Below are positions 1,682 through 51,289 of a stretch of 54,924 nt of DNA, one piece after another (the stretch's first letter is position 1; each line of letters opens with the position of its first letter). This stretch comes from Candidatus Limnocylindria bacterium. Its GTDB lineage: Bacteria; Chloroflexota; Limnocylindria; P2-11E. The translations under genes were made by a program, and so were the position numbers. The notes beneath the pieces are model-generated. The model was not told the DNA's origin. It searched no databases and was given only the letters and a program-made list of their open reading frames with translations. The DNA lies in the NCBI GenBank assembly GCA_036555955.1, contig DATBKH010000170.1:1-54924 (forward strand), given 5' to 3'.

Positions 1682-4600
1682 TTAGCGGGCCGAGATCGGC
1701 GAGGGTGGCGCGAGCAGGCGCTCGACGCCGCGACGGTCGGTCGTCGCGCCCAGTTCCGCGAAGATCGTTACGGCTTCGCGAACGAGCGCGAGGTCGTCGC
1801 CTTCGAGCCGGCCCGCCGTGGCGTGCACTTGAGCGAGCGCGGCGAGGCTCCGGGCGAGCTCCAAACGGTTCTGAGCGAGCCTGAGAATGCTCACGCTCTC
1901 TGTAAGCTCGGCGGCCGCCTGGGTCCGCATCCCCAGCGCGTGGTGCACGGTACCCAGTACTTGGAGCGCCACGCCCTCCTCGTCGCGCGCTTTGATCTCC
2001 CGCGCCACGTCGAGCGATCGCAGCGCCCAGCCGAGCGCGACGGCCGGCTCCTTCGCGAGTTCGACCTTCGCGAGCGTTCGATATAGCTCGGGCAGGAACA
2101 GCCGCGAGTCGAGCTTCTCCCACTCGGCGAGCGCGCTCCCCAGCGAAGTGCGCGCTTCGTCGAGGTGACCGTCTTCGTAGTGGAGGATGCCGAGGTTCAT
2201 ATGGACCGTCGCCACGCCGACGGCGTTCCCGACCTGCGACCAGCTCTGCAGCGCTTCTTCCGACGCCGCGATCGCACCTGGGTAGTCGCGGCGATTTCGA
2301 AGGGTCTCGGCCAGATTTGCTTGCGTCATGCCGACGCCCCACAGGTCTCCGATGCGCCGTGCGAGCGTCAGCGCCTGCCGCTGCTCCTCCAGCGCTTCGT
2401 CCCAGCGCGATTGTCGGCGGAAGACGATGCCGAGGTTGTTGCGAACGTTCATCAGTCCCTGCGGATCGTCGAGCGACTCGTAGATCGAGAGCGCGCGGCG
2501 ATACAGATCCACGCCTCGCGCGTGATCGCCCTTGAGCACGCTAGCCGTACCGAGGTGTTTGTACCCCTCCGCAACGAGCTGGCGTGACCCTGCGGCGTCC
2601 GCCATGCCAACGCCGCGCTCACCGGCGACGAGCGCGTCGTCATAGCGGCCCTGGCGCCAGGCCACGTGAGCCAGCTCGATCCACACCGCGGCGGTGTCCG
2701 CATGTACGAGGTCGCCCGCGCTCGCGCCGGCACGCTCGAGCCAGCGGAGGGCGAGCTGGTAGTCGCCCTCGCGCTGATAGGTGACGGCCACCTTGCGTTC
2801 CAAGCGAGATTTCACGATCGCCGCAGCCGCAAGGTCATACGCTTCCCGGTACGAGTCGCGGGCCCGGGGCAGCTGGCCGATCGTCGTCCGCACGTCGCCG
2901 ATGCCTTCGAGTGCCGCTGCCCTTTGCGTATCGTCGGGCGCGAGCGCCAGTGCCGATTCGTACGCGCGGACGGCCTGATCGTTGGCGTACAGGCGCTGCG
3001 CGCGCGCGCCGGCTATGAGCAGATACCGGCACGCGCTGGCGCGGTCGTCGCTTCGCTCGTAGTGATACGCGAGAAAGTCCACGAACTCGTCGAGCCGCTC
3101 CGTATAGAGCGCTTCCATCGCGGCCGCGATCGATCCGTGCAGCCGCCGCCGGTCCGCCTGCAGCTGCGTCTCGTACGCGACCTCTTGGATCAGGATCTGC
3201 CGGAATCCGTAGGTGACCTCCGGCGACACGGTCTGGAGATCGACGAAGCTCCCGTGTTCGAGCGTCACGAGATGCTCGGCAAGGGCGACGTCGGGAAGGA
3301 GTCTTTCGAGAACGCGGACCCAGAAGGTCCGCCCGCACACGGCCCCGGCGTTCAGCGTCCGTCGCGTATCGAGCGAAAGCCGATCGATGCGCGCCTCGAT
3401 GAGTTCCTGAATCGTCGCGGGCACCGGCGCGGTCGCGCCCGGTACGAGCGCGACCCGACCCTTCCGTTCGATGAGGAGCGTCGATGCCTTCAACGCACGT
3501 ACCACCTCCTCAATGAAGAAAGGATTTCCCGCGGTGCGCCCGATGATCGTCTCGGCGAGCTGGTCCTCGACGGGAACCTCGAACACGGTCTCGATCAGGT
3601 CTCTCGCCGCGGCTCCCTCGAGCGCGCGGATCGCGAGCGTTTCGGTCTGCCACGGCGGCGTCCATCCTGGGCGCGCCGTCGTCGTGAAGAGAAGCGGCAG
3701 CGACGGAATGACCGTCACGAGATCGCCAAGGACGCGCAGGCTCGCGCCGTCGACCCAGTGCAGGTCCTCCGCGGTGAGCACCAGCGGCGCGCGGCGAGCC
3801 GCTAGCGTGAGCAGCGTCCGCAGCAAGGTGACGAGGATGCGTGGCTTGACCTCGGGGTCGAGCGGCGAGCGCACCCCGTAGCCGAGGATGTCGAGGAGCA
3901 GATCCGCGTGCGTCGACTCGAGCTCGGCGCCGAGAGCCGCGAATCCAGTCGTGATCGCCGTTCGCGCCACCGTCTCGTCGTCGGCCGCGTGAATGGAAAA
4001 GGCTCCGCGGATGAAATCCGCGATCAGCGCGTACGGAGTGTTCGTCTCGAACGAGGCGCACCGGACCGTGAGCCGGTCGATGCCCGAGACGAGGTTCGCG
4101 CGGAGCTCGCCGACGAGGCGTGACTTTCCAATGCCGGCCTCGCCAACGACGTTCACGACCCGCCCGCGGCCCTGCACCGCGTCCGCGACCGCGGCGCGGA
4201 GGAACTCGAGCTCGGCGTCGCGACCGATGAAGTGCGTCGATTCCGGGGCGATCTCGTCGTAGCGGCGACGGATGACGCGGTAGCCGACCACGCGCTCCGC
4301 CTTGCCCTTCAGGGTGAGCGGCGCGGTCTCCTCGAACTCGAATGAATGGATGGCGAGCCGTCTCGTGTCGGCGCTCACGAGGACCTCGCCGGGCGGCGCG
4401 GCGGACTCGAATCGCTGCGCCGTGTTCACCGCGTCGCCGACCACCGTGAACGCGGTCTGGACGTCGCCGGCCAGCAATCCGGCGACCACCTCGCCGGTGT
4501 TGATGCCGATGCGCAGCGAGAGCCGCACGCCGTGACGTCGCGACAGATCGTCGTTCAGGTGCCCGATCGACTGCTGCATGGCGAGGGCGGCGTTGATGGC

Positions 4601-4996
4601 GCGCTCGGCGTCGTCCTCGTGTGAGATCGGCGCGCCGAACACCGCCATGACCGCGTCGCCGATGTACTTGTCGATCGTCCCCTCGTAGCGGCGTATCTGA
4701 CGGGCCAGCTCGTTGAAGTAGGAACCGAGGATCCCGCGGAGCTCCTCGGGGTCAAGGCGCTCGCCGAGCGCCGTCGAACCGGAAAGGTCCGCGAAGAGGA
4801 TCGTCACGACCTTGCGCTGCTCGCCGAATGCCGCGGCCGCGACCGAGTCGACCTGCAGCGAGGTGCTCGTCGTCGCGAGCGACTGCGCGCGCGTGACCGA
4901 TACGTCCAGCGCCGCGCCGCACGACGAGCAGAAACGGTCGCGTGCGCGGGCGGCCGCGCCGCAGTTCGCGCAACGGCGTTTTACGGCTGGCGGCAT
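1682..4996 (-). CDS. Zinc-ribbon / class III adenylate(guanylate) cyclase / P-loop STAND ATPase / TPR protein (paralog 1)
   Basis: N-terminal CANCG...CSSCG zinc ribbon. Cyclase motifs ILFADLSGST, DKYIGDAVMAVFGAP and GDAVNTAQR. Walker A GEAGIGKS. About 450 aa of C-terminal TPR-like helical repeats. Confidence 0.9.
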   Translation of the reverse strand: MPPAVKRRCANCGAAARARDRFCSSCGAALDVSVTRAQSLATTSTSLQVDSVAAAAFGEQRKVVTILFADLSGSTALGERLDPEELRGILGSYFNELARQIRRYEGTIDKYIGDAVMAVFGAPISHEDDAERAINAALAMQQSIGHLNDDLSRRHGVRLSLRIGINTGEVVAGLLAGDVQTAFTVVGDAVNTAQRFESAAPPGEVLVSADTRRLAIHSFEFEETAPLTLKGKAERVVGYRVIRRRYDEIAPESTHFIGRDAELEFLRAAVADAVQGRGRVVNVVGEAGIGKSRLVGELRANLVSGIDRLTVRCASFETNTPYALIADFIRGAFSIHAADDETVARTAITTGFAALGAELESTHADLLLDILGYGVRSPLDPEVKPRILVTLLRTLLTLAARRAPLVLTAEDLHWVDGASLRVLGDLVTVIPSLPLLFTTTARPGWTPPWQTETLAIRALEGAAARDLIETVFEVPVEDQLAETIIGRTAGNPFFIEEVVRALKASTLLIERKGRVALVPGATAPVPATIQELIEARIDRLSLDTRRTLNAGAVCGRTFWVRVLERLLPDVALAEHLVTLEHGSFVDLQTVSPEVTYGFRQILIQEVAYETQLQADRRRLHGSIAAAMEALYTERLDEFVDFLAYHYERSDDRASACRYLLIAGARAQRLYANDQAVRAYESALALAPDDTQRAAALEGIGDVRTTIGQLPRARDSYREAYDLAAAAIVKSRLERKVAVTYQREGDYQLALRWLERAGASAGDLVHADTAAVWIELAHVAWRQGRYDDALVAGERGVGMADAAGSRQLVAEGYKHLGTASVLKGDHARGVDLYRRALSIYESLDDPQGLMNVRNNLGIVFRRQSRWDEALEEQRQALTLARRIGDLWGVGMTQANLAETLRNRRDYPGAIAASEEALQSWSQVGNAVGVATVHMNLGILHYEDGHLDEARTSLGSALAEWEKLDSRLFLPELYRTLAKVELAKEPAVALGWALRSLDVAREIKARDEEGVALQVLGTVHHALGMRTQAAAELTESVSILRLAQNRLELARSLAALAQVHATAGRLEGDDLALVREAVTIFAELGATTDRRGVERLLAPPSPISAR

Positions 4997-5094: not shown

Positions 5095-7242
5095 ATGACC
5101 GTCGAGACCGCCGACATCTGGGGGTTGCTGCGCGACAAGCTCGACTACGCCTCGTTCGTCCCGACGCCCCTGCCGGACATCGAGCGCGCCGACCTGCGGC
5201 GGCGCGATGGCACTCCCTACACCGTTATCAAGAATCCGCACGGCGACAACGGCGCCGGCCGTTACCTTCGCCTGGAGCCCGCCGACGTCGCGCTCATGCA
5301 GCTGATGGACGGGCGGCGGACCGTGCAGGAGATCCTCGTCGCGAACCTCGAGAACGGCGGCGGCTTCGCGCTCGAGAGGCTCGCTCGCTTGACCGCCGCG
5401 ATGCGCACGAATGGGTTCTTCGGCGAGGAGCCGCCGCCGCTCTACGAGAAGCTTCGCGCCATGGCGGCGCGCCGCGACCCGATGGCGCAGGCGTCGATCC
5501 TGTTGCGCCGCCTCGTCCTTTGGGACATCGCCCGCTGGTCGAACGCGGACCGCTTCGTCGACCGGGCGTACCGGACAGTGGGGTGGCTGGCGTTCACGCG
5601 CATCGGCGCCGCGCTCCTCGTCGTCTTCGGGCTCGCGGGTCTGGTGCTCTGGTTCGAGGAGACGAAGATCCCCACGCTGCAGCTCGTCACGCTGAACGGC
5701 TCGTACACCCTGGGCCTGCTCGCGCTGACTCTCCTGCAGGTCCTCTCGATCTCGATACACGAGGCCGGGCATGCTCTGGCGATACGGCATTTCGGCCGAC
5801 GCGTCCGGCGCTTCGGTCTGGCGATGTATTACCTCTTTCCCTGCTGCTACGTGGACTCGACGGACATGAGCCTTTCGTCGCGATGGAAGCGCGTCATCGT
5901 TTCGCTCGCCGGGCCGTTCGCGGGTCTCGTCGTCGCGGCGGCCTGCGCGGTCGTGGCGTGGTTCTCGCCGCACACGCTGCTCGGCGAGTTCGCGTTCAAG
6001 GGCGCGAGCCTCCTCGTGTTCCAGTTCGTGCTGAACCTCTTACCCATCCTCGAGCTCGACGGTTATCACGTGCTGGTCGACGCGCTCGACGCGCCACTGC
6101 TCCGACAGCGTGCGCTCGCGTTCGCGCGTGGCCAGGTCGTCCGGAAGATCCGGCAGCGCGCGAAGTGGACGCGTGAAGAGATCGGCCTCGCGCTGTTCGG
6201 TGGATTCGCGATCGTCATCTCGCTCGCGACGCTGTTCCTCTCGCTCGTGATCTGGCGGTCGCGCATCGAGGTCGCGGCGCGGGAGCTGATCCGTCTGGGC
6301 TGGCCGGGGCTCCTGATCCTCGCGCTGATCGCGCTCGTGTTCATCGGTCCGCTCGCGGTGGCGCTCGCCGCACGGGCCCTCGGGACGGCTCGCCTCGCGG
6401 CGAGGCTGGCCGCCGCGCGGAGCGCGCGGGTCGCCCAGCTCGAGCTCGAGGAGCGGGTCAACGTCCTCTCGCGGGTGCGCTTCCTCGCGGGCCTTCCGCG
6501 CCAGTCGCTCCTGGTGATGGCGTCGCATCAGGAGATCGAGCGCTTCCAAGCCGGAGACATCGTCTTCACCGCCGGCGATGCCGGGGACCGGTTCTATCTG
6601 GTCCGGTCCGGTCGCCTTCGCGCGACCGGCGCCGACGGCACGGTCTTCGGGACGATCGTGCCGGGTGAAGGCTTCGGCGAGCTCGCGCTGCTCGATCACA
6701 CCGTGCGTTCCGCGACGGTCCAGGCGATCGAGCCGGTGGAGGTCTGGTCGCTGCGGCGCGGCCACTTCAATCGCTGGGTTCGCGAGCGGTACGAGGTCGC
6801 GGCCCGCATCCGTGCCTCGCGAGGCGAGCGGAACGCCCTCTCCTCGCTTCCGTTCTTCAAGGGGCTGAGTGGCCAGGAGCTCGACCGGATCGCGGCGCGC
6901 ATGCGGACCATTCGGTATGGCGACCGCCAGCCGGTGTTCCTCGCGGGGGATCCCGGGGACCGCTACTACGTCATCCGCGAAGGCAAGGCGCTGGTGACGC
7001 TCCCCGACGGGCGCCCGATCAGGACGCTCGGGCCGGGCGACGCCTTCGGCGAGCTCGCCCTCCTGTTCCGGAAGCCGCGCACGGCGACCGTTACAGCGGT
7101 CGGCACGCTCGTCGTGGCGGCTTTGGAGCGGGTCGACTTCCTAGCTTTGGTGAAGGCTTCCGGAGAAAAAGAGGGTGCGTTCCGCGCGAGAACGGGCCAT
7201 TATGTCGGCGCTGGTCTGGGGGAGGCCATTGCGGGGAGCTAG
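5095..7242 (+). CDS. Membrane protein: PqqD-like (RRE-like) domain + M50 site-2-protease core + two cyclic-nucleotide-binding domains
   Basis: Residues ~45-110 (LRLEPADVALMQLMDGRRTVQEILVANL...LERLARLTAAMRTNGFF) resemble the PqqD winged helix. The multi-TM core carries HEAGH (nt 5758-5772) and NLLPILELDG (nt 6034-6063). The C-terminus has two cNMP domains with FGELAL..RSATV and FGELALL..RTATV cassettes. Confidence 0.85.
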   Translation: MTVETADIWGLLRDKLDYASFVPTPLPDIERADLRRRDGTPYTVIKNPHGDNGAGRYLRLEPADVALMQLMDGRRTVQEILVANLENGGGFALERLARLTAAMRTNGFFGEEPPPLYEKLRAMAARRDPMAQASILLRRLVLWDIARWSNADRFVDRAYRTVGWLAFTRIGAALLVVFGLAGLVLWFEETKIPTLQLVTLNGSYTLGLLALTLLQVLSISIHEAGHALAIRHFGRRVRRFGLAMYYLFPCCYVDSTDMSLSSRWKRVIVSLAGPFAGLVVAAACAVVAWFSPHTLLGEFAFKGASLLVFQFVLNLLPILELDGYHVLVDALDAPLLRQRALAFARGQVVRKIRQRAKWTREEIGLALFGGFAIVISLATLFLSLVIWRSRIEVAARELIRLGWPGLLILALIALVFIGPLAVALAARALGTARLAARLAAARSARVAQLELEERVNVLSRVRFLAGLPRQSLLVMASHQEIERFQAGDIVFTAGDAGDRFYLVRSGRLRATGADGTVFGTIVPGEGFGELALLDHTVRSATVQAIEPVEVWSLRRGHFNRWVRERYEVAARIRASRGERNALSSLPFFKGLSGQELDRIAARMRTIRYGDRQPVFLAGDPGDRYYVIREGKALVTLPDGRPIRTLGPGDAFGELALLFRKPRTATVTAVGTLVVAALERVDFLALVKASGEKEGAFRARTGHYVGAGLGEAIAGS

Positions 7243-7245
7243 GGA

Positions 7246-7461
7246 TTGGATTGCTGGGTCTGCGAAAGGACCGCGCTTGCCGCGTGCCGCTTCTGCGGGC
7301 GCGGGACCTGTCGCGAGCACTCCCGGAATCACCCGTTCGTTCTCGAGCTCTTCCGTGGCAACCGTCACGACGTCATCAGGGCGCTAGTGGTCGAAGACGC
7401 GATCCACTGCGGGGTCTGCCGCCCGCGTGGTGAACCGGTGCAGATGCCGGAGCTCGAGTAG
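7246..7461 (+). CDS. 71-aa Cys-rich zinc-finger mini-protein (B-box-like spacing)
   Basis: TTG start lies 7 nt after RBS GGGGAG (7233-7238), which sits in the last codons of the upstream gene (stop TAG 7240-7242). Pattern CxxC-x7-CxxC-x4-CxxH (CWVC..CRFC..CREH) plus a C-terminal HCGVC. Confidence 0.6.
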   Translation: MDCWVCERTALAACRFCGRGTCREHSRNHPFVLELFRGNRHDVIRALVVEDAIHCGVCRPRGEPVQMPELE

Positions 7462-7589
7462 GCACGAGCTGCGGAGGGAGGGCGAAGGTTAGGTAGATCA
7501 CACGGACCGAGTGACACGGGGCGACGAGCCGCAGCACCCGAGCGGCGCAGAGTCACCGCCTACCGATAGCGGTGAAAAAGGAGCAGGTA

Positions 7590-8792
7590 ATGAGCAAGAA
7601 CCTCGAGAAAGTGATCCAGCGGGCGATCAGTGACGCGGCATTCCGCCGTCAGCTCCAGTCGAACCCCGAAGCGGCGCTACGCGGCTTCAACCTCACGGGT
7701 GACGAGGTTGCCGCACTCCGCAGCGGAGACGCCGGGAAGCTGATGTCCCTCGGCATCGACCAGCGCATGAGCAAGACATTCCAGGTCGGCGGCGAGTCCT
7801 TCTCAAGCATGGCCAGCCGCGCGGCCATCGGTGGCGACCTGACCACGACGAGCGGGTCGCTCATCGACCAGGACACCGGCCGTCTCGCGGCCGCGGACAC
7901 CATCGGCGCGACGAGCGGAAGCACCGCCTCGATCGACCCCGGCAACGTCGACGGCACCCCGCGCGCTTTCGGCGACCCGCTGAGCACGGCGACGGCGGCG
8001 TCCGACGCGCTCGAGGACCAGAGCCACGCGATCGCGGGCCGTCAGATGGGCGACGCCACCGGCACCGTCCGGAGCTCCGTCCGCGACTTCGAGCCGGCCG
8101 CGCAGATCGGCACGAGCGACTACAGCTCGGCGTACCCCGCCCATGGCGGCCTGGCAGGCCCAAGCGGCACGAACCTGAGCGCCGGCAACGTCGCTCCGGT
8201 CGAGGGCAGCCCCGAGGCGTTCGCATTCCGCGACCAGGGCGAGACCGCGGTCCGCAGCAACGTTCGCGACTTCGAGCCCGCTGCCGGATCCGCGCCGACA
8301 TCCGACGCGATCGAGGACCAGAGTCACGCGATCGCCGGCCGGCTGGCTGGTGAGACCGCGGTCCGCAGCAACGTTCGGGACTTCGAGCCCGCCGCGCAGC
8401 TCAGCAACAGCGAAGTGGCGAGCGATGAGGGCCAGGTCATCTCGCGGATCCGCGACAACGCTCCCGCGGACGTTGGCTCTTCGGCGACGATCAGCGGTGA
8501 CGACGCGGCAGGCCCCGGCTATCTCGCCGCCTCGGACGACATGACCATCTCACGCGTTCGCGACATCGCGCCCGCCGACACGATGGGCTCGGACGTCGCG
8601 GCGAGCTCCGCGGCGACCTCGGACGCGTTCCTCACGGAGGGCGAGGTCAGCCAGTACGCAGCGACCGACCCGAACTGGAGCTCGGACGCGGCGGAGGACA
8701 CGAGCCACGCGTTCAACCCGGACGTCAGCGACGCGGCCGTGGACGGCGGGACCGACTCGACCGCCAACCACGACTCGGAGCTCACGAGCTAA
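7590..8792 (+). CDS. Acidic tandem-repeat protein with an NHLP/Nif11/LigA-like helical N-terminal leader ending in Gly-Gly
   Basis: ATG 7590 is 6 nt after AAGGAG (7578-7583); the track ORF starts at GTG 7572. The N-terminus MSKNLEKVIQRAISDAAFRRQLQSNPEAALRGFNLTGDEVAALRSGD...TFQVGG resembles RiPP-type leaders. The rest is S/T/A/D/E-rich with repeated SDA[LI]EDQSHAIAGR and VRS.VRDFEPAA units. No signal peptide or TM segment. Confidence 0.7.
   Translation: MSKNLEKVIQRAISDAAFRRQLQSNPEAALRGFNLTGDEVAALRSGDAGKLMSLGIDQRMSKTFQVGGESFSSMASRAAIGGDLTTTSGSLIDQDTGRLAAADTIGATSGSTASIDPGNVDGTPRAFGDPLSTATAASDALEDQSHAIAGRQMGDATGTVRSSVRDFEPAAQIGTSDYSSAYPAHGGLAGPSGTNLSAGNVAPVEGSPEAFAFRDQGETAVRSNVRDFEPAAGSAPTSDAIEDQSHAIAGRLAGETAVRSNVRDFEPAAQLSNSEVASDEGQVISRIRDNAPADVGSSATISGDDAAGPGYLAASDDMTISRVRDIAPADTMGSDVAASSAATSDAFLTEGEVSQYAATDPNWSSDAAEDTSHAFNPDVSDAAVDGGTDSTANHDSELTS
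8001..8396 (+). repeat. Near-identical intragenic DNA repeats encoding the repeated peptide modules
   Basis: Unit A, tccgacgcg(c/a)tcgaggaccagag(c/t)cacgcgatcgc(g/c)ggcc, occurs at 8001 and 8301 (exactly 300 nt apart, 37/40 identical). Unit B, gagaccgcggtccgcagcaacgttcg(c/g)gacttcgagcccgc, occurs at 8241 and 8352 (111 nt apart, 1 mismatch in 41). A diverged copy lies at about 8064-8105. Confidence 0.85.
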
Positions 8793-8811: not shown

Positions 8812-8850
8812 GAAGGAGCGGCTCCGCGAGGGGCCGCTTCTTTCGTTTCT
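8812..8850 (+). terminator. Intrinsic-terminator-like hairpin between the convergent repeat-protein and Crp genes
   Basis: GAAGGAGCGGC (8812-8822), a ~10-nt loop, then GCCGCTTCTTT (8833-8843), giving about 10 bp including G-U pairs. It runs into the T-rich tract CTTTCGTTTCT. No U-tract on the opposite strand. Confidence 0.5.
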
Positions 8851-9520
8851 AATAGCGGATGTCGCCGCGCAGCAGCTCTCGATCGACGAGCTCGATGTGG
8901 CGGCGCCCCAGACGGATCGCCTTCCGGTGCTCGAGGTCCGCGAGGACCCTGTTCACCGACACGCGGGCGGCGCCGACGAACCCGGCGATGTCCTCCTGGG
9001 TGAGCTCGACGCTGTCCGAGCCTGACGCGTCCGCGATGTCGAGGAGGCACTTCGCGACACGGCCGGGGAGGTCGAGGAACACGAGGTCCTCGACGTGTCC
9101 GGTGCTGCGGCGGACGGTCTTCGCAAGGAGGCCGAGCATGCGTTTCATCGCATCGGGGTTTCGCTCGAGCACCGCCATGAAGTCCGCACGCCCGAGCGCC
9201 AGCGCCGACGTCTCGGTCACCGCCGTGACCGTCGCCGAACGCTGAGCGTCGTCGAAGAGCGCGAGCTCGCCGAACACGTCGCCGCCTCGCTCGAGCGCGA
9301 TGACGACCTCGCGGCCCGCCTCGTCGGGCACGGAGACCTTCACCGTGCCGGCCATGATGAGAAAGACCTGACCGGCCTCGTCGTCGCGGTGAAAGATGAC
9401 CTCGTCCCGGCCGAAATGACGTGGGCGCATGCGCGCCGCGAGCGCGAGGCGGTCATTCGCACCGAGCGCGGCGAAGAGGGGGTGCTCCACGAGGTAGTCG
9501 GCGATCCGCGAGGCGTCCAC
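8849..9520 (-). CDS. Crp/Fnr-family transcriptional regulator (cNMP-binding domain + HTH)
   Basis: cNMP cassette GDVFGELALFDDAQRSATVTAV. C-terminal HTH LTQEDIAGFVGAARVSVNRVLADLE. Confidence 0.9.
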   Translation of the reverse strand: MDASRIADYLVEHPLFAALGANDRLALAARMRPRHFGRDEVIFHRDDEAGQVFLIMAGTVKVSVPDEAGREVVIALERGGDVFGELALFDDAQRSATVTAVTETSALALGRADFMAVLERNPDAMKRMLGLLAKTVRRSTGHVEDLVFLDLPGRVAKCLLDIADASGSDSVELTQEDIAGFVGAARVSVNRVLADLEHRKAIRLGRRHIELVDRELLRGDIRY

Positions 9521-9749: not shown

Positions 9750-10916
9750 ATGGCAGAGTTTCCCGGCGCCGCGCTGCCGCTCCTCTTCTACGCGGACGGA
9801 TACAAGTTCCCCGACGTCTATCACGCGACGCGTTTCCTCGCGCCGGACCCGATCATCGCCCTCGAGGGGGTCGAGGAGCTCGTGCTGGCCGTGAGCTCGC
9901 TCGAGGAGGGCCGCGCTCGTAAAGAGTCACGGGCCACCGAGATCATCAACATCAACGCGCTCGGAGCGCAGGAGCTGACCGCGCGCGGCGTCGTCGGCAC
10001 CGAGCTCACCGCCGCGCTCATCAAGCGGCTCCTCGACGATCGCGGCGTGCGCCACGTCGCCGTCCCTTCGTACTTCCCGCTCGGGCTCGGAGACCGGCTC
10101 CGCGCGCTCGGGATCGAGCTCCGCATCGCCACGAACATGAGCGAGCGCAGGCGCACGAAGCGACCGGACGAGATCGAGGCCATCGAAGCCGCGCAACGGG
10201 CGACGGAGGAGGCCTGGCAGCGCGGCGTCGACGCGCTGCGGCGCGCGAGTGTCGAACGAGACAAGACGCTCACGCTGGACGGCGCGACACTCACGGCCGA
10301 GCGCCTCCGCGCGATCGTCGAGTCGGCGCTGCTCGAGCGCGGTTACGCGTCCGATGGCGCGATCATCGCGCCCGGTCCGCAGGGCGCGAATCCGCACGAG
10401 ATCGGGACCGGCCCGCTGCACGCGAACGAGCCGATCGTCATGGACATCTTCCCGCAGCACAAGACGAACCGGTACTGGTCGGACATGACACGCACGGTCT
10501 CGAAAGGCGAACCCGCCCCCGCGATCCGGAAGATGTACGACGTCGTCATGAAGGCGCAGGACGCGGGCATCGCAGCGCTCCGCCCGGGCGTGACCGGCCG
10601 CGAGGTGCACGAGCTCGTCGAGGACGTCATCTTCGCCGCGGGCTACGACACGCTCCGGCCGGGCCAGAAGCGCGACCCCGGCGACGCCACGCCACGCGGC
10701 TTCATCCACGGGACCGGACACGGCGTCGGTCTCGAGATCCACGAGCCACCCGATGTGAACCGCGCGGGGAAAGCGCTCAAGGAGGGCGACGTCGTGACGG
10801 TCGAGCCCGGGATCTACGACCCGGCGATCGGCGGCGTGCGCCTCGAGGACATCCTGGTCATCACGCGCGACGGCGCCCGCGACCTCACGCGGGCCCCGCG
10901 CGAGCTCATCGTCTAG
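9750..10916 (+). CDS. M24-family Xaa-Pro aminopeptidase/dipeptidase
   Basis: Creatinase-like N-terminal domain and pita-bread motifs DMTRT and HGTGHGVGLEIHEPP, then VEPGIY...GGVRLED. Confidence 0.9.
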   Translation: MAEFPGAALPLLFYADGYKFPDVYHATRFLAPDPIIALEGVEELVLAVSSLEEGRARKESRATEIININALGAQELTARGVVGTELTAALIKRLLDDRGVRHVAVPSYFPLGLGDRLRALGIELRIATNMSERRRTKRPDEIEAIEAAQRATEEAWQRGVDALRRASVERDKTLTLDGATLTAERLRAIVESALLERGYASDGAIIAPGPQGANPHEIGTGPLHANEPIVMDIFPQHKTNRYWSDMTRTVSKGEPAPAIRKMYDVVMKAQDAGIAALRPGVTGREVHELVEDVIFAAGYDTLRPGQKRDPGDATPRGFIHGTGHGVGLEIHEPPDVNRAGKALKEGDVVTVEPGIYDPAIGGVRLEDILVITRDGARDLTRAPRELIV

Positions 10917-10954: not shown

Positions 10955-11782
10955 GTGGTCTGGGGATTCGCCGACTACGCGGCCGGGCTCTGCGCGCGCC
11001 GCGTCGGCGCTGTGCGCACCGCGTTCGCCATGCAGGCGACCGGCCTGACCTCGTTCGCGCTCGTCACCTGGCTCCTCGGACGATGGCCCGCCTTCGAGCC
11101 GGGCATGGTGCCGTTCGCGCTCGCGCTGGGCGTCCTGGGCGTCGTCGCGGTGGCGGCGCTCTATCGCGGGCTCGCGCTCGGCCCGGTCGCCGTCGTCGCG
11201 CCGGTCGTCGCCTCCTACGTCGTGATCACCGTGATCCTCGTCGTGATCTTCCTCGGCGAGCGGTTGTCGATCGCGCAGATCGTCGCGGCGTCCGTGGTCT
11301 TCGTCGGAGTCGTGCTCACGTCGACGGACGCGCGCGAGCTGCGCGTGACGCTCGGACGGCCCGTCCCCGGCGTGCGCATCGGTCTGGTCGCGACCCTCGG
11401 ATTCGGGCTGTGGAGCGCGGTCTTCGCCATCGCGACCCGCCAGTACGACTGGATCCCGATGATCCTGCTCCTGCGCGCGACGAGCTTCGTCTTCATCGGC
11501 TCGTTCATCGCCGCGCGGCGCATCGACCTCCGCGTGTTCCGCGCGAGGGTCGCCCTCCTGCTCGGCACGATCGTGGGCGTGCTCGACACGCTCGCGAACG
11601 TCTTCTTCGCTCTCGGCATCGAGTCGGGCTACGCGTCGCTCGCCGCGACCGGAACGGGCATGTACCCGATAGTGCCGGCGGTGCTGGGAATGCTCGCGCT
11701 GGGCGAGCGGCTCGCGCCGAATCAGCTCGCGGGGATCGTGCTGCTGGTCGTCGGCCTCGCGGCGCTCGGTGCGGTGAGCTAA
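10955..11782 (+). CDS. EamA/DMT-family transporter
   Basis: Highly hydrophobic, about 9-10 TM segments, EamA-like VVWGFADY start. The true start may be the in-frame CTG at 10922 (LEALLLGVAAAVVWG), because GTG 10955 truncates the first helix. Confidence 0.75.
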   Translation: MVWGFADYAAGLCARRVGAVRTAFAMQATGLTSFALVTWLLGRWPAFEPGMVPFALALGVLGVVAVAALYRGLALGPVAVVAPVVASYVVITVILVVIFLGERLSIAQIVAASVVFVGVVLTSTDARELRVTLGRPVPGVRIGLVATLGFGLWSAVFAIATRQYDWIPMILLLRATSFVFIGSFIAARRIDLRVFRARVALLLGTIVGVLDTLANVFFALGIESGYASLAATGTGMYPIVPAVLGMLALGERLAPNQLAGIVLLVVGLAALGAVS

Positions 11783-13143
11783 GCGGCGAGGAGCAGCGCC
11801 GGCGCGACGCTGGAGCGTGCGACCTTCGTCCGGAGGTACGCGACCGCCGCGTCGAGCTGCGGATCGCCCTGCGCGCCGGTTGGCTGATCGACGATCTGGT
11901 CGGGCACGATGCCGCGGCCGGGACCGTTCAGGTCCTCGCCGGTCTTGGCGTCCTGGATCTTCGTGATCGTCACGAGAAGAAGTCCCCCGTCCGGCAGATC
12001 GCGCGGCTGGCCGGTCCCGACGCATCCCGCGGTCTGTGAGCCCATGACGAGACCGGCGCCGTTCGCGCGGATCCCAGCGGCGATGATCTCCGCTCCGGAC
12101 GCCGAGCTCTTGTTCACGAGGACCACGAGCGGCTTGTTGCTGTCGATGTAGAAGCGGCGGTTCACGTCGAGCGGAGTGCGGTTGCCGTCGCGGCCCGTCT
12201 GGTACACGAGCGTGCCCTGCCGGACGAAGATGCTCGCGATGTCGACCGCGGCGGAGAGATCTCCACCCGGATCGCCGCGCAGGTCGAGCACGAGCGCCTC
12301 GGCGCCGTTCGCATCGAGCCGCTTCACCGCGTTGGAGACCTCGTCGGCGACCGCGCCCACGAGCTGCGGGACCTCGATGCGGCCGATGTTGCCGTCGATG
12401 ATCGACTCGGTCTCCAGGGGCACCGAGAAGCGCGCCCGGTTCATCGTCAGCGACAGCGTGTCGGAGCCGCGCAGGATGCCGATCGTCACGCTCGTGCCCT
12501 CCGGACCCTTCACCTTCGTCGCCACCTCGTCCGTCTGGAGCTTGGTGACGTCGACGCCGTCGACGGTCACGATCTTGTCGCCGGCCTTCACGCCCGCGCG
12601 CTGCGCCGGCGTGTTCGGGATCACTCGCACGACCTCGATGGGGTCGTCCACGCCCGGCTTGCTGATGGTGACGCCGATCCCCGAGACCGGTGGCTGGGGC
12701 TGGTTGAAGGTCTTGGCCCGGGAGGGGTCGAGGTAGTAGGTGTGGCACTCGTTCATGGAGCGCGCCATGCCGTCCACGGCGGCCCGCTCGAGGGCCGTCT
12801 TGTCGGCGTTCGGCGTCGCGCTGACGATGGCGTCGAGGCGGTCGGAGAACTTCGCGAAGTCGGACCAGGTGCTGCCGGTGAGCGCCAGGTCGCCCGACGG
12901 GAGCGCGCCGTCCGAGGCGCCTTCCTTCTTCGCTTCGGTCACCACGCTGGCGAGCGCGCCGGTCAGAAGCACCTTCGAGGTGGGCTTGTCCACGTGCCGC
13001 TCGATGAGGACCTGGTAGGCGGCCTCCGCGGTCTTGTACGCGGTGTTGGAGGGGAGGAGCTCCCGCTGCAGCTCCGCCGGAACGAGCGAGCATGCCGCCG
13101 CGACGAACGCGACCAAGGGAAGAAGAGAGCGGAGGCGGATCAC
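11779..13143 (-). CDS. S41 C-terminal-processing peptidase lipoprotein with PDZ domain
   Basis: GTG start at 13143 gives (M)IRLRSLLPLVAFVAAAC, a lipobox signal. PDZ segment VVRVIPNTPAQRAGVKAGDKIVTVDG. S41 motifs LVLDLRGDPGG and NKSSASGAEI. The track ORF extension to 13515 is Arg-rich and judged an artefact. Confidence 0.85.
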   Translation of the reverse strand: MIRLRSLLPLVAFVAAACSLVPAELQRELLPSNTAYKTAEAAYQVLIERHVDKPTSKVLLTGALASVVTEAKKEGASDGALPSGDLALTGSTWSDFAKFSDRLDAIVSATPNADKTALERAAVDGMARSMNECHTYYLDPSRAKTFNQPQPPVSGIGVTISKPGVDDPIEVVRVIPNTPAQRAGVKAGDKIVTVDGVDVTKLQTDEVATKVKGPEGTSVTIGILRGSDTLSLTMNRARFSVPLETESIIDGNIGRIEVPQLVGAVADEVSNAVKRLDANGAEALVLDLRGDPGGDLSAAVDIASIFVRQGTLVYQTGRDGNRTPLDVNRRFYIDSNKPLVVLVNKSSASGAEIIAAGIRANGAGLVMGSQTAGCVGTGQPRDLPDGGLLLVTITKIQDAKTGEDLNGPGRGIVPDQIVDQPTGAQGDPQLDAAVAYLRTKVARSSVAPALLLAA

Positions 13144-13187
13144 GAGATACCTATCGAGCAGTCTACGGGCCCACCCCCGGAGCGGGT

Positions 13188-13814
13188 TCAGGCCACTTCG
13201 CTCGTTAAGAGCTTTCTTAAGCGACCGAGCGCTCGGAACTGCAATGCGCGGATGGCGCCCTCGTTCTTTCCGAGGACCTGCGCGACTTGACGGCTCGACA
13301 TGTTCTCGACGAAGCGGAGGACGATGACCTCCTGCTGCTCGGTGGTGAGGTGCTTCACCGCGCCGCGCAGCGCGTCGACCGCCTCGCCGTGCACCGCGCG
13401 ATCGTGCGCGCTCGGTCCGTCCTCGGCGACGCCGTACGCGTTGTCGAGATCGACGGTCGGGCGATCGCGACGCCGGCGGTCGGTCACCGCGTTGCGCGCG
13501 ATCGTGTAGAGCCACGCGAGGAAGGACTTGCCCTGCCAGCGATAGCGATGGATGTTCGCGAAAGCGCGCGTGAATACCTCGCTCGCGAGGTCCTCCGCAT
13601 CCGAAGGCTCGCGGACGCGGTAGAGGAGGTAGCGGTACACGGAGTCGACGTGTCGGTCGTAGAGCTCGGCGAACGCCGTGCGGTCACCGGCCTTCGCGCG
13701 CGCGATCACGTCGGGTACCGGACCCACGACATCGAGCGAGAGCGCGGTGACTTTCGCGACGCTTGGCCGCAAGCGGTCGTCCCTTCCCTTCCTCACAGTG
13801 CGCAGGCCGACCAT
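13188..13814 (-). CDS. ECF (sigma-70 family) RNA polymerase sigma factor
   Basis: Region 2 FAELYDRHVDSVYRYLLYRV..DLASEVFTRAF. Region 4 LTTEQQEVIVLRFVENMSSRQVAQVLGKNEGAIRALQFRALGRLR. ATG at 13814 chosen; the GTG giving VTALSLD is an alternative. The upstream part of the track ORF is an artefact. Confidence 0.85.
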   Translation of the reverse strand: MVGLRTVRKGRDDRLRPSVAKVTALSLDVVGPVPDVIARAKAGDRTAFAELYDRHVDSVYRYLLYRVREPSDAEDLASEVFTRAFANIHRYRWQGKSFLAWLYTIARNAVTDRRRRDRPTVDLDNAYGVAEDGPSAHDRAVHGEAVDALRGAVKHLTTEQQEVIVLRFVENMSSRQVAQVLGKNEGAIRALQFRALGRLRKLLTSEVA

Positions 13815-13947: not shown

Positions 13948-15060
13948 CTACCCGCCGGCGATCTTCTGCTTGAGGATCTCGATCGCTTTGTCGACGGCCG
14001 TCGCATCGTCCGACTGCACGTCCGGCGGGATGCCTTTGTTGTTGTAGCGGCTTCCGCTGACCGCGCCGACGACCTCCTGCGTGACGATCGAGAAGAGCGC
14101 GTTGTCCGGCGCGCGGAACTCGTCGGCGCCACCGACGCAGCCGGTGGTCGTCGATCCCACGAGCGTCATCCGCTTTCCCTCTTTCAGATCGAGGATGAAA
14201 TGCTCCGACCCGGACGCGGTGCGGTCGTTCGCGATGATCACCATCGGCAGCTGGTACGCGGCGGGCAGCCGAAGGTCCTTGTTCGCCGTGGCGGTGCCGC
14301 CGTTCCCGTTCTTCAGCAACACGGTCCGCGTCGGCTCGCCGTTCAGGAAGAAGCTCGAGATGTCGACGGGGAAGCCGCCGAGATTGCCGCGGAGATCGAT
14401 GAGCCACGCCTTCGCGCCTTGCGCGAGCGCCTTGTCGAGGATCGACCGTAGCGCGTCGTTCAGGCGGTACGTGCCGGTGTTGATCCAGGCGTGGAACGTG
14501 ATGTAGGCGATGCCGTCGGGAAGCATCTTCCCGGTCATGCCCGCTTCGTCGGGACCGCCGAGGCTCGTTCCCTGCGACGGGACCATCGCCTGGCTGCCCT
14601 TCGGCGTGTAGGCGAGCGAGTGGAAGACGCTGCCGCTCGCCGTCACGTAGTAGGTGTGGCAATCGGGACTTGCCGCGAGCATTCCCGTGATCGCGGCGTC
14701 GGCGATCTGGTCGGCGGAGAGATCCGCGCGGCTCGCGAGCTGTGAGACCGCGTCGGCGAACTTGTTGAAGTCGGCGGTCTGCGGCGAGTCCGTGTCCTGG
14801 AATTCGGGCGTGCCCACGTCGTCCTTGCCACCGGCCTTGCGGACCGCGGCGCGAACGCCATCGAGAGCGGCCTCCAGCGCTTTCTTGCTGGTGACATGGT
14901 GAAGATCGTCGTCTACGAATCCGCTGTACGCGATGTCCAGCTTCGTCCGTTTGATGTCGGCGGTCTTCGAGGGGGATTGAGAGGCCGAGCCGGTCGGCCC
15001 CGGCGTGCACGCCGCGAGCACGAGCGTCGCCGTGACGATGAGCATGAGCGCGCGGCGCAT
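13948..15060 (-). CDS. S41-like peptidase lipoprotein (no obvious PDZ), paralog of 11779-13143
   Basis: Lipoprotein signal MRRALMLIVTATLVLAAC. S41 motifs WLIDLRGNLGGF and NDRTASGSEHF. Shares the CHTYY motif with the neighbouring S41 protein. Confidence 0.8.
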   Translation of the reverse strand: MRRALMLIVTATLVLAACTPGPTGSASQSPSKTADIKRTKLDIAYSGFVDDDLHHVTSKKALEAALDGVRAAVRKAGGKDDVGTPEFQDTDSPQTADFNKFADAVSQLASRADLSADQIADAAITGMLAASPDCHTYYVTASGSVFHSLAYTPKGSQAMVPSQGTSLGGPDEAGMTGKMLPDGIAYITFHAWINTGTYRLNDALRSILDKALAQGAKAWLIDLRGNLGGFPVDISSFFLNGEPTRTVLLKNGNGGTATANKDLRLPAAYQLPMVIIANDRTASGSEHFILDLKEGKRMTLVGSTTTGCVGGADEFRAPDNALFSIVTQEVVGAVSGSRYNNKGIPPDVQSDDATAVDKAIEILKQKIAGG

Positions 15061-22042: not shown

Positions 22043-25000
22043 CTAGGTCGGAACGGCGACCTGCTCGACGGCGTTCCGTAGCGCGACCGCCCCGAGGCGG
22101 TCGGCGATCGCGCGCGCCTCGTCGCACTCCGGCTGATGGTCCTCGCGGCCCAGCGCGGCCAGAACGCGCGCGTGATCGGCGAGCGCGACGGCGCGCTCGT
22201 AATCCAGGCGCAGCGTGGCGAACGCCTGGACCGCGTCGAAGATGAGCTTCTCGGCCTTCGCGAGCTCGCCGCGCTCCATCGCGCGAACGCCCTCGGCTTG
22301 CGTGAGCAGTGCGCGGCCGCGCGCGTGCCCGGTCTTCTCGACGACCGCTTCGATGCGCTCGACGAACGGGTGGTCGTCGACCCGCCAGCGGGCGGCGGCG
22401 AGCACCGCGAGCGGGCCGATGAGGGCGAGATCGACGATGCCCTTCGGATAGCCCGCGCTGCGGATCGCGTGGTAGCTCGACTCGCTCTCGCGGAGCCCGT
22501 AGACCGCGGTGAGAAAGTCGCACGCCGCCAGCTCCACCGGCGTCGCCTCGGCCTCGACGAGCTGATCGCGGTACGACTTCTCCTCCGGCGAGTTCACCGC
22601 CGCCGCGGCCGCGCTCGCCACGACGAGCGTCATCTGCCAGCGCGTGCTCGCGCGGAGGCTGTCGCGCCGGGCGGCCGTCCCGAGCGCGCCCATGAAGTCG
22701 CCGGAGAGCAGATGCGCGAGCGCCTCCGTGTGCAGCGCGTGCCAGCCGAGCCGCGGCTTCTCGGTCTCGAGCGCGAGCGCCCGGGCCGTCGAAGCGTGCT
22801 CGATCGCCTCGGCGAAGTTGCCCAGCACGAGCGCGGAGAGCGCGACCATGGTGTGGGCGTCGATGAGCTCGTCGCTGTCCTGCAGCGATTGCGCGATCGG
22901 CAGGCGCCGCATGTTCTGCGCGAGGGCCTCGCGGAAGTTGCCGAGCTCGCGGTACGCGTATCCGACCGCGTCGAGGCAGAGCGAGACCTCGCGGAGCGTG
23001 CCGAGATTCTCGGCGATCCCGAGTGCCTCCTTCGCCGTCTCCAGCGAGGCCTTCCAGTCTTCATCGGTCGACTTCGCGCCGCGGCGGGACATGAACGACT
23101 TCGCCGCGAGCAACAGGACCTTCTCGCGGTTCTGCTTGCCGTCGACGATCGCGAGGCCGCGCGCGATGAGACCCTCGAGATCGGGATGCTTCGCATCCCA
23201 GCGCGTGCAGAGCTCGGCCATGTGAGCGATGACCGTCGCGACGGCGTCGCTCTTCGGGTCGCGCGTCTCGAGCATCGACAGCGCGCGCTCGTATGCGCTC
23301 AGGGCCGCGTCGTTCTCGCCGCGGTAGCGCCGCACCCGCGCGATCAGGTACAGCGCCTTCACCGCTTCGTCGGTGCGCTCGAGCTTTTCGAAGAGCTCGA
23401 GCGCCTGTTCCGCCAGACGCACCGCCTCGAGATGCGCGTGGATCGCCGTCGCGCGCTCCGCGGCCTTCCACGAGTACTCCGCCGCCTTGTCGGGGACGTC
23501 GCCGAGCAGGTAGTGGTGCGCGAGGGCGGGGTAGAAGTCCTTCAGGCTCTCGCCCAGGGTGCTCTCGTACGCGGCCGCGACCCGCCGGTGGAGCTCGACG
23601 CGTCGCCTGACGAGAAGCGTGTTGTAGGCGACCTCTTGGACCACGGCGTGCTTGAAGCGATAGCGGCCCTCGCGCCGCTCGCCGGGCGCGGCCTCCAGCA
23701 CGAGGTCGGCGGCGATGAGCTCGTCGACCGAATCGGCGAGGCGCTGCCCGCCGGCTTCGCGCAGCACGCGGTCGCCGAAGCGCTGGCCGATCACCGACGC
23801 GACCTGGATCGTCTCCTTGGCCGTCGGCGGCAGCCGGTCGATGCGCGCCGCGACGACACCGTGCAGCGTCGCCGGCACCTCGAGGGCCGCGGGCCGCTCG
23901 CGCAGCTGCCATTCGCCCTTGTCGTCCTTGGCCACCGCGCCGGACTCCACGAGGGAGCGGATGGACTCCTCGATGAAGAAGGGGTTCCCGCCGGCGCGCG
24001 CGACGATCTTGTCGCGCAGCTCGTCCGGGATCCAATCGAAGGTCGCGTCGATGATCCGCGCGGCCTCCTCGTCGGAGAGCGGCTCCAACACGAGCTGGCT
24101 GAAGTTCGTCCGGACCGGGCGCGGCTCCGGCGAGCCGGGGCCGGCGCGCTGCGCGAGCAGGAGAAGGATCGGCACGCGCGACGCGCGCGACGCCACGAAC
24201 CAGAGCAGCTCGAGGGAGGCCGAATCGGCGAAGTGAAGGTCCTCGAGCACGTACAGGAGCGGGCGCTCGCGCGCGAGCGACGCGATCACGTCGTACACGA
24301 CGATGAACATGGAGCGCTTCCACTCCTCCGAGTCGCTCGGCGGCTCCGTCGCGCCGGAGATGTGGAAGAACTGCGCGAGGGTCGGCGACACGAGCTCCGG
24401 ATTGGCGAAGTTCAGCTCGCGAAGCTTCGTCGTGATCTTCGCGGCTGCCTCCGGGTCGTTCGGGTCGACGCGGAGCTCGACCAGGAGCGGCTCGATGAAG
24501 CCGGCGTAGCTCCGCTGGTTCACGCGCGAGAAAGTCCAGCGCAGCACGCGCGGCGCGTCGCTGCGGACGCCGTCCTCCGCCGACGTCGCGAGACCGATGA
24601 ACTCGCTGAGCAGCCGGCTCTTCCCGATGCCGGGCTCGCCCGCGATCAGCACCACCTCGGTCCGGCCGACGCGCGCCGACTGGAACGCGAGGTCGAGGCG
24701 GGAGAGCTCCATCCAACGACCGACGAGGGGCGCTTGGATGTCGATCGACGTCCGCGGCGTCGTGCGCTCGCCCGTCAAGGCGTAGGCGAGGATCGGCCGG
24801 TCCTTGCCCTTCATGTCGATCGGACCGACCTCGCGGAAGCTGAACTCGCGGTTCGTGAGCCGGAACGTGGCCTGCGTGACGTACGTCTCGGCGGGCGCCG
24901 CCGCCTGCTGGAGCCGCGCGGCGGTGTTGACCGTGTCGCCCATGACGCCGTACTCGGCCGGAGCGCGGACCGCGCCGGCGACCACCATCCCGGTGTGCAC

Positions 25001-51279: not shown

Positions 51280-51289
51280 GAGCGCGGTG

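Follow-up and report, generated by a model that had tools for sequence, protein, structure and literature searches.

The window analysed in this work is a stretch of 54,924 nt with approximately 70% GC, contig DATBKH010000170.1 of a Candidatus Limnocylindria bacterium (assembly GCA_036555955.1). The gene under study, at positions 5095-7242, encodes a 715-aa protein in which a predicted recognition element (RRE) of the kind that serves peptides made on ribosomes and modified after translation (RiPPs) is joined to a site-2 protease (S2P, peptidase family M50) core with six transmembrane (TM) helices and to two cyclic nucleotide-binding (CNB) domains. Beside it lie genes for a nucleotidyl cyclase, a small Zn-ribbon protein, a precursor-like protein with an NHLP-clan leader and a Crp-family regulator. 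On balance, and with some reserve, we favour the reading that this protein is an intramembrane leader protease which is guided by its RRE, controlled by cyclic nucleoside monophosphates (cNMPs) and directed at the adjacent precursor within a conserved gene cassette. The protease gene and its parts are as follows (AF2, AlphaFold2 model):

5095-7242, forward strand: RRE-S2P/M50-CNB-CNB protein of 715 aa (ORF, Pfam, NCBIfam, homologues, AF2)
5176-5412, forward strand: RRE/PqqD-like winged helix, aa ~28-106, modelled as three strands and then three helices (AF2, Foldseek, PqqD matches of homologues)
5596-6375, forward strand: six-TM S2P core, aa ~168-427 (hydropathy, AF2, Pfam Peptidase_M50, NCBIfam daptide_HExxH)
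5758-5772, forward strand: HEAGH zinc-binding/catalytic motif, H222, E223 and H226 (invariant in close and distant homologues)
6034-6063, forward strand: NLLPILELDG motif, in which D322 is the third zinc ligand of S2P enzymes (motif, conservation)
6481-6834, forward strand: CNB domain 1, aa ~463-580, with its phosphate-binding cassette at aa 527-542, nt 6673-6720 (Pfam cNMP_binding, Foldseek)
6847-7194, forward strand: CNB domain 2, aa ~585-700, with its phosphate-binding cassette at aa 651-666, nt 7045-7092 (Pfam, Foldseek)

The open reading frame (ORF) starts with ATG and runs for 715 codons with a GC3 of 0.89. More than 345 full-length homologues were found at E≤1e-5, the best 120 of which are all about 710 aa long with the same two Pfam domains, so that the ORF and its motifs lie far beyond chance; in the databases such relatives are named "putative peptide zinc metalloprotease protein" or "cyclic nucleotide-binding domain-containing protein". 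An initial annotation, made from the letters of the window, had placed the HEAGH motif at nt 5758-5772 (aa 222-226) and NLLPILELDG at nt 6034-6063 (aa 314-323), and both positions are exact; the PqqD-like string that it reported near the N-terminus is present as YLRLEPADVALMQLMDGRRTVQEILVANLE (aa 57-86), and the two complete CNB domains with intact FGELAL...R[ST]ATV cassettes are both there, covered by two stretches of Pfam cNMP_binding. Residues H222, E223, H226, D322, G528, E529, R538, G652 and R662 are invariant among 56 homologues of 63-83% identity, and H222, E223, H226 and D322 are also invariant in a distant set of 27 sequences (27-57% identity).

The membrane core matches Pfam Peptidase_M50 (PF02163) above the cutoff (E 2e-14, 53.8 bits vs 27.2). 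HEAGH sits at the end of predicted TM2, i.e., HExxH lies in a TM helix as in S2P enzymes, and NLLPILELDG agrees with the second S2P motif NxxPxxxxDG, in which P317, D322 and G323 never vary, and N314 hardly does, across the distant set. By its HExxH and LDG motifs and by profile the protein is a member of the S2P/M50 family, with predicted proteolytic activity. Six TM helices, at approximately 168-188, 203-224, 265-287, 299-321, 365-387 and 403-427, are given alike by hydropathy and by the full-length AF2 model (mean pLDDT 75); in the model a re-entrant beta-hairpin (aa 239-253) separates TM2 from TM3, and a single long helix (403-458) links TM6 to the first CNB domain. The number of TM helices is even, and therefore the RRE-like N-terminus and the CNB tandem face the same side of the membrane. 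That side is predicted to be cytoplasmic, because the loops 225-264 and 322-364 are rich in Lys and Arg and because the domains must meet cNMP and a precursor devoid of a signal sequence; the loop 388-402 is an exception to the positive-inside rule. This topology is the one that the initial annotation had assumed.

The N-terminal domain was examined by structure models and through its homologues. Its AF2 elements are strands 30-35, 41-47 and 56-60 followed by helices 62-70, 77-88 and 93-105, and a domain-only AlphaFold model (pLDDT 91) has the same beta-beta-beta-alpha-alpha-alpha order as RREs. The best Protein Data Bank (PDB) matches of the domain in Foldseek are TbiB1 (5v1u, probability 0.99), TfuB1 (6jx3, 0.96) and CteB (5wgg, 0.91), with TM-scores of 0.60-0.66 on stand-alone RREs and TglI further down the list; the TbiB1 and TfuB1 structures were solved with leader peptides. 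One winged helix that is not an RRE, Rv2067c, is also among the top matches. A fold search with the full-length model returned CNB proteins only and thus says nothing about the N-domain. A set of 43 diverse N-domains from homologues, with 23-37% identity to the query, was compared with Pfam: 25 of them match PqqD at E≤0.1 (best 4.4e-6), and 7 weakly match PKMT_2nd. When the N-domain profile was searched against PDB, PaaA (5ff5), TfuB1 (6jx3) and PqqD (3g2b, 5sxy) were found with weak E-values (0.02-1.5), in a list that is not exclusively made of RREs, as the de novo Symfoil beta-trefoils 3o4c and 4f34 score equally well or better in it. Most of the signal in these comparisons points to PqqD/RRE. 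Taken with the match to the RRE-bearing daptide S2P family described below, the closest curated one, they support the assignment of an RRE-type winged helix made in the initial annotation, for which leader binding is predicted.

The two phosphate-binding cassettes, FGELALLDHTVRSATV (aa 527-542) and FGELALLFRKPRTATV (aa 651-666), contain FGELAL..RSATV and FGELAL..RTATV, respectively. The Pfam cNMP_binding (PF00027) match has an E-value of 2e-41 (140 bits vs cutoff 27.5), both cassettes keep the Gly-Glu and Arg-[Ser/Thr]-Ala contacts, which are invariant in the 56 homologues, and the tandem superposes on the regulatory subunits of PKA and PKG (Foldseek E 5e-19). The predicted ligand of the CNB tandem is cAMP or cGMP.

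Amino acids 1-445 were searched against 1.84 billion cluster representatives, and the RRE-S2P module was found in 9,719 representatives at E≤1e-3, 3,656 at E≤1e-10 and 289 at E≤1e-30. CNB domains occur in 90 of the best 150 representatives, in 80 of them as two or more copies; 26 resemble the window protein in length and content (560-800 aa, two CNB domains), 56 combine CNB domains with a length of at least 1000 aa, and 35 are 400-560 aa long with no CNB domain. In the five examined proteins of the larger CNB class (1000-1170 aa, among representatives P0126-P0270), the S2P core and the CNB tandem are separated by an insert of about eight additional TM helices and a cytoplasmic region of helices (e.g., aa 440-830 of P0128), and this insert has no match in Pfam or NCBIfam. 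The view that the fusion is unusual was thus not borne out: the tandem form is widespread in metagenomes, and RRE-S2P is an already described RiPP protease type. The initial annotation had allowed that the architecture might prove both common and already characterised; it is common, but no paper was found on the CNB-fused form. Our literature search returned no description of an S2P with CNB domains or of a CNB-fused RRE-S2P, an absence which is weak evidence because most subscription journals lie outside its coverage. The CNB-fused RRE-S2P is therefore a common but unnamed protein, undescribed in the literature searched. A scan of GTDB species representatives with a 6-sequence alignment confirmed at least 530 relatives, and 80 loci were retained, all from metagenome-assembled genomes (MAGs): about 52 of Limnocylindria type (54-77% identity) and 28 distant ones (31-41%) from Anaerolineae, Dehalococcoidia, Thermoflexales, Dormiibacterota, Actinomycetes, Solirubrobacterales and Edwardsbacteria. 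The clade has no NCBIfam model of its own.

The neighbours of the protease gene in the window include the cyclase, Zn-ribbon, NHLP-leader and Crp genes and genes for M24, EamA and S41 proteins. Those that concern the cassette are:

1682-4996, reverse strand: 1104-aa protein with a Zn-ribbon, a class III nucleotidyl cyclase domain, AAA_16 (STAND) and TPR (Pfam, NCBIfam)
7246-7461, forward strand: 71-aa Cys/His-rich Zn-ribbon (B-box-like) protein, starting 4 nt past the protease stop codon and translationally coupled (ORF)
7487-7502, forward strand: CRP-type operator-like box GGTTAGGTAGATCACA, differing from TGTGA-N6-TCACA at 2 positions and lying 96 nt upstream of the ATG of the precursor gene
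7590-8792, forward strand: precursor-like protein of 400 aa with an NHLP-clan leader and a repeat region (NCBIfam NF038399, ribosome-binding site, repeats)
8849-9520, reverse strand: Crp/Fnr-family regulator (CNB and HTH_Crp_2), convergent with the precursor gene (Pfam)

The precursor-like protein most likely starts at ATG 7590, which has a strong ribosome-binding site (aaaaaggagca); the mechanically called ORF starts at GTG 7572. Its leader (aa 1 to ~62) passes NF038399, the Os1348-family NHLP clan model, with 67.9 bits vs a cutoff of 40 over aa 9-67 and the whole 63-position model, and it also matches the RiPP precursor SonA and, at 1e-5, PDB 6lk7, the crystal structure of Os1348 (PMC7726476). 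The match to Pfam Frankia_peptide (1.2e-8, 35.6 vs 48) falls below the cutoff, and a homologue search with the leader alone returned mostly short fragments. The leader ends in the conserved motif G-[VI]-D-[QE]-R-[MLIV]-S-K, in the window GIDQRMSK followed by TFQVGG; this motif is kept from Limnocylindria to Anaerolineae and Dehalococcoidia, and the region after it varies. In the window this region is about 340 aa long, low-complexity, Cys-free and rich in D, S, A, T and G, with dispersed repeats, namely ETAVRSNVRDFEPAA (three copies, plus two of ISR[IV]RD.APAD) and SDA[LI]EDQSHAI (three copies, the third degenerate), and the protein ends in ...SELTS. The C-terminal parts of the Limnocylindria proteins in general are 150-470 aa long, acidic, Cys-free and D/S/G/A/T-rich with lineage-specific repeats, whose copy number differs between near-identical loci (388 aa in L001, 10394-11560, vs 319 aa in L002, 4440-5399).

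The leader proteins of the distant lineages are 65-100 aa long and extend merely 3-12 residues past the leader-end motif. A Dehalococcoidia MAG (L074, 12213-15566, reverse strand) has five leader genes of 65-66 aa in about 3.4 kb, three of them in tandem, with the tails AMRWK, VAKVRP, GVKIRM, AIKFR and RKRFH after DERL[ST/V]K, all different and basic or aromatic; such differing tails of 5-6 residues are reminiscent of signalling-peptide families. Other tails are GCDWICYGYQW in L073 and L081 and LCICDF in L056.

Six-frame searches were made of 83 related loci, and partners were counted among the loci with enough flank. The Zn-ribbon partner was found in 47/48 Limnocylindria-type and 18/24 distant loci; in the Limnocylindria type a leader protein lies downstream in 37 of 39 loci (1-3 copies), Crp is present in all 20 of 20, and a cyclase is found within 8 kb upstream in 10 of 21. 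The Zn-ribbon protein has the spacing C-x2-C-x7-C-x2-C-x4-C-x2-H ... C-x2-C and the alignment motif CWxC...CRFCGRxxCxxHA...RALVVxDAxxCGxC, its Pfam matches (C5HCH, DUF2180, B-box) are sub-threshold, and its family, found also in L001, is kept from Chloroflexota to Actinomycetota-type MAGs and always annotated "hypothetical protein". Through the Zn-ribbon a third lineage was reached (L084-L086), in an rpsP-rimM-trmD-rplS neighbourhood and in the compact order protease, Zn-ribbon, very basic 42-48-aa ORF, Crp; an alignment of its protease with that of the window runs over the whole length, through the RRE as well, at 29% identity. The peptide in the cargo position of L084 (9385-9513) and L086 (9425-9571) is extremely rich in Lys and Thr, with Crp after it on the same strand. 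Since the Zn-ribbon is kept across the close, the distant and the L084-L086 loci, protease and Zn-ribbon form the invariant pair.

In the window alone the CRP consensus is not significant, with 4 matches vs 6.6 expected. Across loci a TGTGA-N6-TCACA-like block stands 94-113 nt before the precursor ATG in nearly all intergenic regions; with at most 2 mismatches it occurs in 20/42 non-identical intergenic regions vs 1.3 expected from shuffles (maximum 5 in 200), and it is perfect in L031, L037 and L039. The 250 nt upstream of the protease gene, used as negative control, are not enriched for the box (1/51 vs 1.6 expected). In L084 and L086, of the actinobacterial-type lineage, the small cargo gene likewise has CRP-like palindromes before it. 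The window box is meaningful because its position is conserved across loci, and this predicted operator ties the adjacent Crp paralogue (NCBIfam CRP 1.3e-26, below cutoff) to expression of the cargo.

The cyclase gene at 1682-4996 lies upstream of the protease gene and is divergent from it. Its product matches Pfam Guanylate_cyc (2.8e-30), AAA_16 and TPR, and its best NCBIfam match is the TOMM system kinase/cyclase fusion TIGR03903 (2e-79, below cutoff). The catalytic motifs are FADLSGST, DKYIGDAVM (Lys) and FTVVGDAVN (Thr), which, when read by eye against the class III rules, look adenylate-cyclase-like, a hint only. This protein is a candidate source of the cyclic nucleotide. Upstream cyclases come in three arrangements: the STAND cyclase of the window, a response-regulator cyclase behind a GAF kinase (L001-type), and a cyclase on the same strand directly upstream (L030, L034, L035, L037, L038, L042 and L044). 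Three paralogous cyclase + AAA_16 (STAND) proteins are encoded in the 55 kb, at 1682-4996 (reverse), 22046-25429 (reverse) and 51287-54274 (forward), and Pfam finds TPR repeats in those at 1682-4996 and 22046-25429; such a number suggests that cNMP signalling is abundant in this genome.

Among known systems, the daptides offer the closest comparison, as their leader is removed by an intramembrane S2P that carries the RRE as an N-terminal fusion (bioRxiv 10.1101/2023.03.08.531785). The window protein resembles the daptide peptidase MpaP/DapP (NF041824) in having an N-terminal RRE and a six-TM M50 core, and daptide_HExxH is its best curated match (E 1.2e-39 over aa 53-420, from the RRE helices through TM6). 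However, its score of 136.5 bits is far below the equivalog cutoff of 300, as are those of its whole clade (130-145 bits); MpaP-type proteins are about 380 aa long and have no CNB domains; the daptide gene set (DUF-RRE MpaB, ADH MpaC, aminotransferase, methyltransferase) is not present beside the window cassette; and the window precursor has an NHLP-type leader and a Ser end, in contrast to the ELExMEAP and invariant Thr end of daptides. The epipeptide and pearlin enzymes EpeP/YydH and TglG/TmoG are likewise membrane M50 proteins that mature ribosomal peptides (PMC10885120); neither an RRE nor a CNB domain is named for them in the sources, their precursors and tailoring enzymes differ from those of the window, and the match to YydH/LiaK (NF058609) is weak (8.9e-18, 64.8 bits vs cutoff 225). 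Membership in the daptide and epipeptide (YydH/LiaK) families was rejected on curated cutoffs and gene context, and we propose for the window protein a clade that is sister to MpaP, the leader peptidase of daptides.

In SpoIVFB a core of six TM helices, with a re-entrant beta loop that stands between TM2 and TM3, is followed by an interdomain linker and, at the C-terminus, a CBS domain (PMC11486902). The window protein resembles it and mjS2P in the six-TM core, the TM2-TM3 hairpin and a post-TM6 linker to a cytoplasmic nucleotide-binding domain, and the substrate of SpoIVFB is a non-TM protein that loses an N-terminal pro-sequence, as proposed here. It differs in having a PKA-R-like CNB tandem in place of the CBS domain and an N-terminal RRE, and the SpoIVFB partners BofA and SpoIVFA are absent, a Zn-ribbon protein taking their place. 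The protein is thus placed in neither the daptide nor the SpoIVFB family, as it falls below the daptide and YydH cutoffs, is not accompanied by their gene sets and has no CBS domain; by analogy, we propose that it would work like an MpaP-type RRE-S2P joined to a SpoIVFB-type C-terminal nucleotide sensor.

The precursor side of the locus belongs with the NHLP/Nif11/Os1348/Frankia_peptide clan. Curated names tie CNB proteins and cyclase fusions to NHLP-type precursor systems (TIGR03896 cyc_nuc_ocin and TIGR03903 TOMM kinase/cyclase), with the window-locus matches to both below cutoff. In NHLP-type systems the leader is reportedly removed as a rule by a C39-peptidase ABC exporter (Haft et al., 2010), and the window cassette differs in that the RRE-S2P is its sole dedicated protease and in that its cargo is 340 aa of repeats rather than a short core.

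We propose the cassette order cyclase(s), RRE-S2P-CNB2, Zn-ribbon, CRP box, NHLP-leader precursor(s) and Crp. From the domain identities, motifs, topology parity, conserved gene order and conserved CRP-like box observed above, we infer a route whose substrate, cleavage site, ligand, direction of regulation and Zn-ribbon role are predictions. The neighbouring cyclase would raise cAMP (or cGMP), and nucleotide-bound Crp would bind the box approximately 100 nt upstream of the precursor gene and switch on precursor synthesis. The N-terminal RRE would capture the folded NHLP/LigA-like leader of the precursor and present the leader junction (DQRMSK, then VGG) to the HExxH/LDG site in the membrane, probably by strand addition to the re-entrant beta-hairpin as in SpoIVFB. 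The occupied CNB tandem, mounted on the TM6 linker helix, would then reposition the linker and license cleavage, releasing the C-terminal cargo, and the co-translated Zn-ribbon protein may be a stoichiometric subunit linked to the CNB module. The initial annotation, arguing from the protein and not from its gene context, had likewise held that the substrate is recruited by a leader-binding domain and that activity is controlled by cAMP or cGMP; the NHLP-clan precursor, Crp, the CRP-type box and the cyclases back it, and both cNMP control and leader-guided cleavage keep the status of predictions.

In bacteria, cyclic nucleotides act mainly through transcription factors and channels and through a small number of enzymes, for instance the acetyltransferase Pat; a protease regulated by cNMP is not known to us among these effectors. 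Gating of the RRE-guided S2P by the CNB tandem, if real, would place leader-peptide removal under post-translational second-messenger control and would offer the S2P field an enzyme that a ligand switches naturally and whose substrate is soluble and genetically linked. With the 3,656 representatives above, the nearest mostly CNB-fused, the family is a large one and is found in Chloroflexota and Actinomycetota-type genomes, yet no curated family covers it, and names are likewise lacking for the conserved Zn-ribbon partner and the peculiar cargo proteins; the cassette is compact, with four or five genes, all parts for a reconstitution side by side and an unusually complete signalling context.

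Several findings weigh against this proposed reading. The NHLP leader protein is not universal, being detected downstream in only 7/24 distant loci, and in L084-L086 the third gene encodes a basic 42-48-aa peptide that has no NHLP leader. Adjacency of Crp and cyclase is not kept in the distant loci (3/21 and 2/18), the partner counts overstate support because related loci are not independent, and with three paralogous cyclase genes in the window the adjacency of one of them could be due to chance. The Limnocylindria "cores" (150-470 aa, acidic, Cys-free, repeat-variable) are unlike any known RiPP core; all-against-all clustering of neighbour ORFs found no tailoring enzyme shared across loci; in place of a short, post-translationally modified core the window precursor has its ~340 aa of repeats, with no tailoring enzyme nearby; and how an S2P would export so large a cargo is not obvious. 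The N-domain by itself gives no match to Pfam PqqD (PF05402) at E≤1, for which reason the call was checked through homologues and a structure model, and, owing to its small size, its Foldseek E-values are weak (0.07-1). The CBS domain of SpoIVFB, the analogue of the CNB module, is inessential for cleavage (PMC11486902).

It is possible, and we put it forward tentatively, that the cassette is not a RiPP cluster but a self-contained, second-messenger-gated device for proteolytic release, in which unmodified leader-tagged cargo is cut on demand with the Zn-ribbon protein as subunit and Crp supplies the cargo, forming a coherent feed-forward loop. The cargo may then be signalling-type tails of 5-12 aa in some lineages, basic peptides in others and, in Limnocylindria, fast-evolving disordered repeat proteins of 150-470 aa. 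If so, the CNB-fused intramembrane protease would represent a new class of bacterial cAMP/cGMP effector.

We consider it unlikely that the Zn-ribbon protein is the real client or obligatory partner, with the NHLP proteins as lineage-specific add-on cargo. In that case it could be a regulator that the protease cleaves, or else a subunit, inhibitory or adaptor, that cNMP sets free, in the way that BofA and SpoIVFA hold SpoIVFB or PKA R holds C. It is the sole partner kept across all lineages by the counts given above, its gene is translationally coupled to that of the protease, and leader proteins are missing or replaced in some lineages; among the distant loci a homologue accompanies the CNB-fused protease in 21/23 cases vs 0/5 for the CNB-less form (Fisher p 2e-4, in a test that ignores phylogenetic relatedness). 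However, the Zn-ribbon protein has neither a TM segment nor a leader-like element, characterised RREs all bind precursor leaders, and leader genes are near-universal in the clade of the window. A Zn-ribbon client and an RRE-guided leader protease are not mutually exclusive.

Somewhat more doubtful still is the idea that the CNB tandem is a docking, oligomerisation or localisation module, or binds another ligand, and that cNMP control is purely transcriptional through Crp. The SpoIVFB CBS domain mainly positions the interdomain linker (PMC11486902). The top fold matches of the tandem include trypanosome PKA-R proteins described as cAMP-independent and nucleoside-bound, and the CRP box already explains a dependence on cNMP; but both phosphate-binding cassettes keep their invariant nucleotide contacts, and the CNB fusion is met again and again, in two architectural classes and in no fewer than 80 of the best 150 representatives, a recurrence which argues for a selected functional coupling. 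A classical regulated-intramembrane-proteolysis role on a TM regulator such as an anti-sigma factor, with the N-domain as a generic protein- or DNA-binding winged helix, would fit the most studied S2Ps (RseP and RasP, which cut TM regulators) and the Rv2067c and PKMT_2nd matches, but is very improbable given that no sigma or anti-sigma gene was found in the window neighbourhood or in recurrent neighbour clusters, that the nearest curated relatives are RiPP proteases (daptide, YydH/LiaK), and that the PqqD/RRE majority signal goes together with adjoining genes for RiPP-type leaders.

In one Anaerolineae subgroup (L056, L057, L061, L062 and L064) a RimK-like ATP-grasp ligase gene lies directly upstream of the protease gene (L062, 8977-9906), and the same subgroup has an M23 peptidase and glycosyltransferases. 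This neighbour echoes the original ATP-grasp link of the Frankia_peptide family, which is said to have been defined by Iyer et al. in 2009. A graspetide reading of the window locus was rejected, as the RimK-like ATP-grasp occurs in that subgroup only and is absent from the clade of the window.

Rfam and tRNA scans of the window were empty. Several peptidase genes lie near the cassette, encoding an M24 Xaa-Pro-type peptidase (9750-10916) and two S41 peptidases on the reverse strand, the first with PDZ (11779-13515 and 13948-15060); an S9 prolyl oligopeptidase with PD40 repeats is encoded at 17683-20448 and a PD40 beta-propeller protein at 108-1676, and these peptidase and PD40 genes are not kept beside the cassette in L001. 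The housekeeping histidine biosynthesis genes hisIE, hisB, hisC and hisD at 26304-31218 (reverse strand) indicate that the window is chromosomal.

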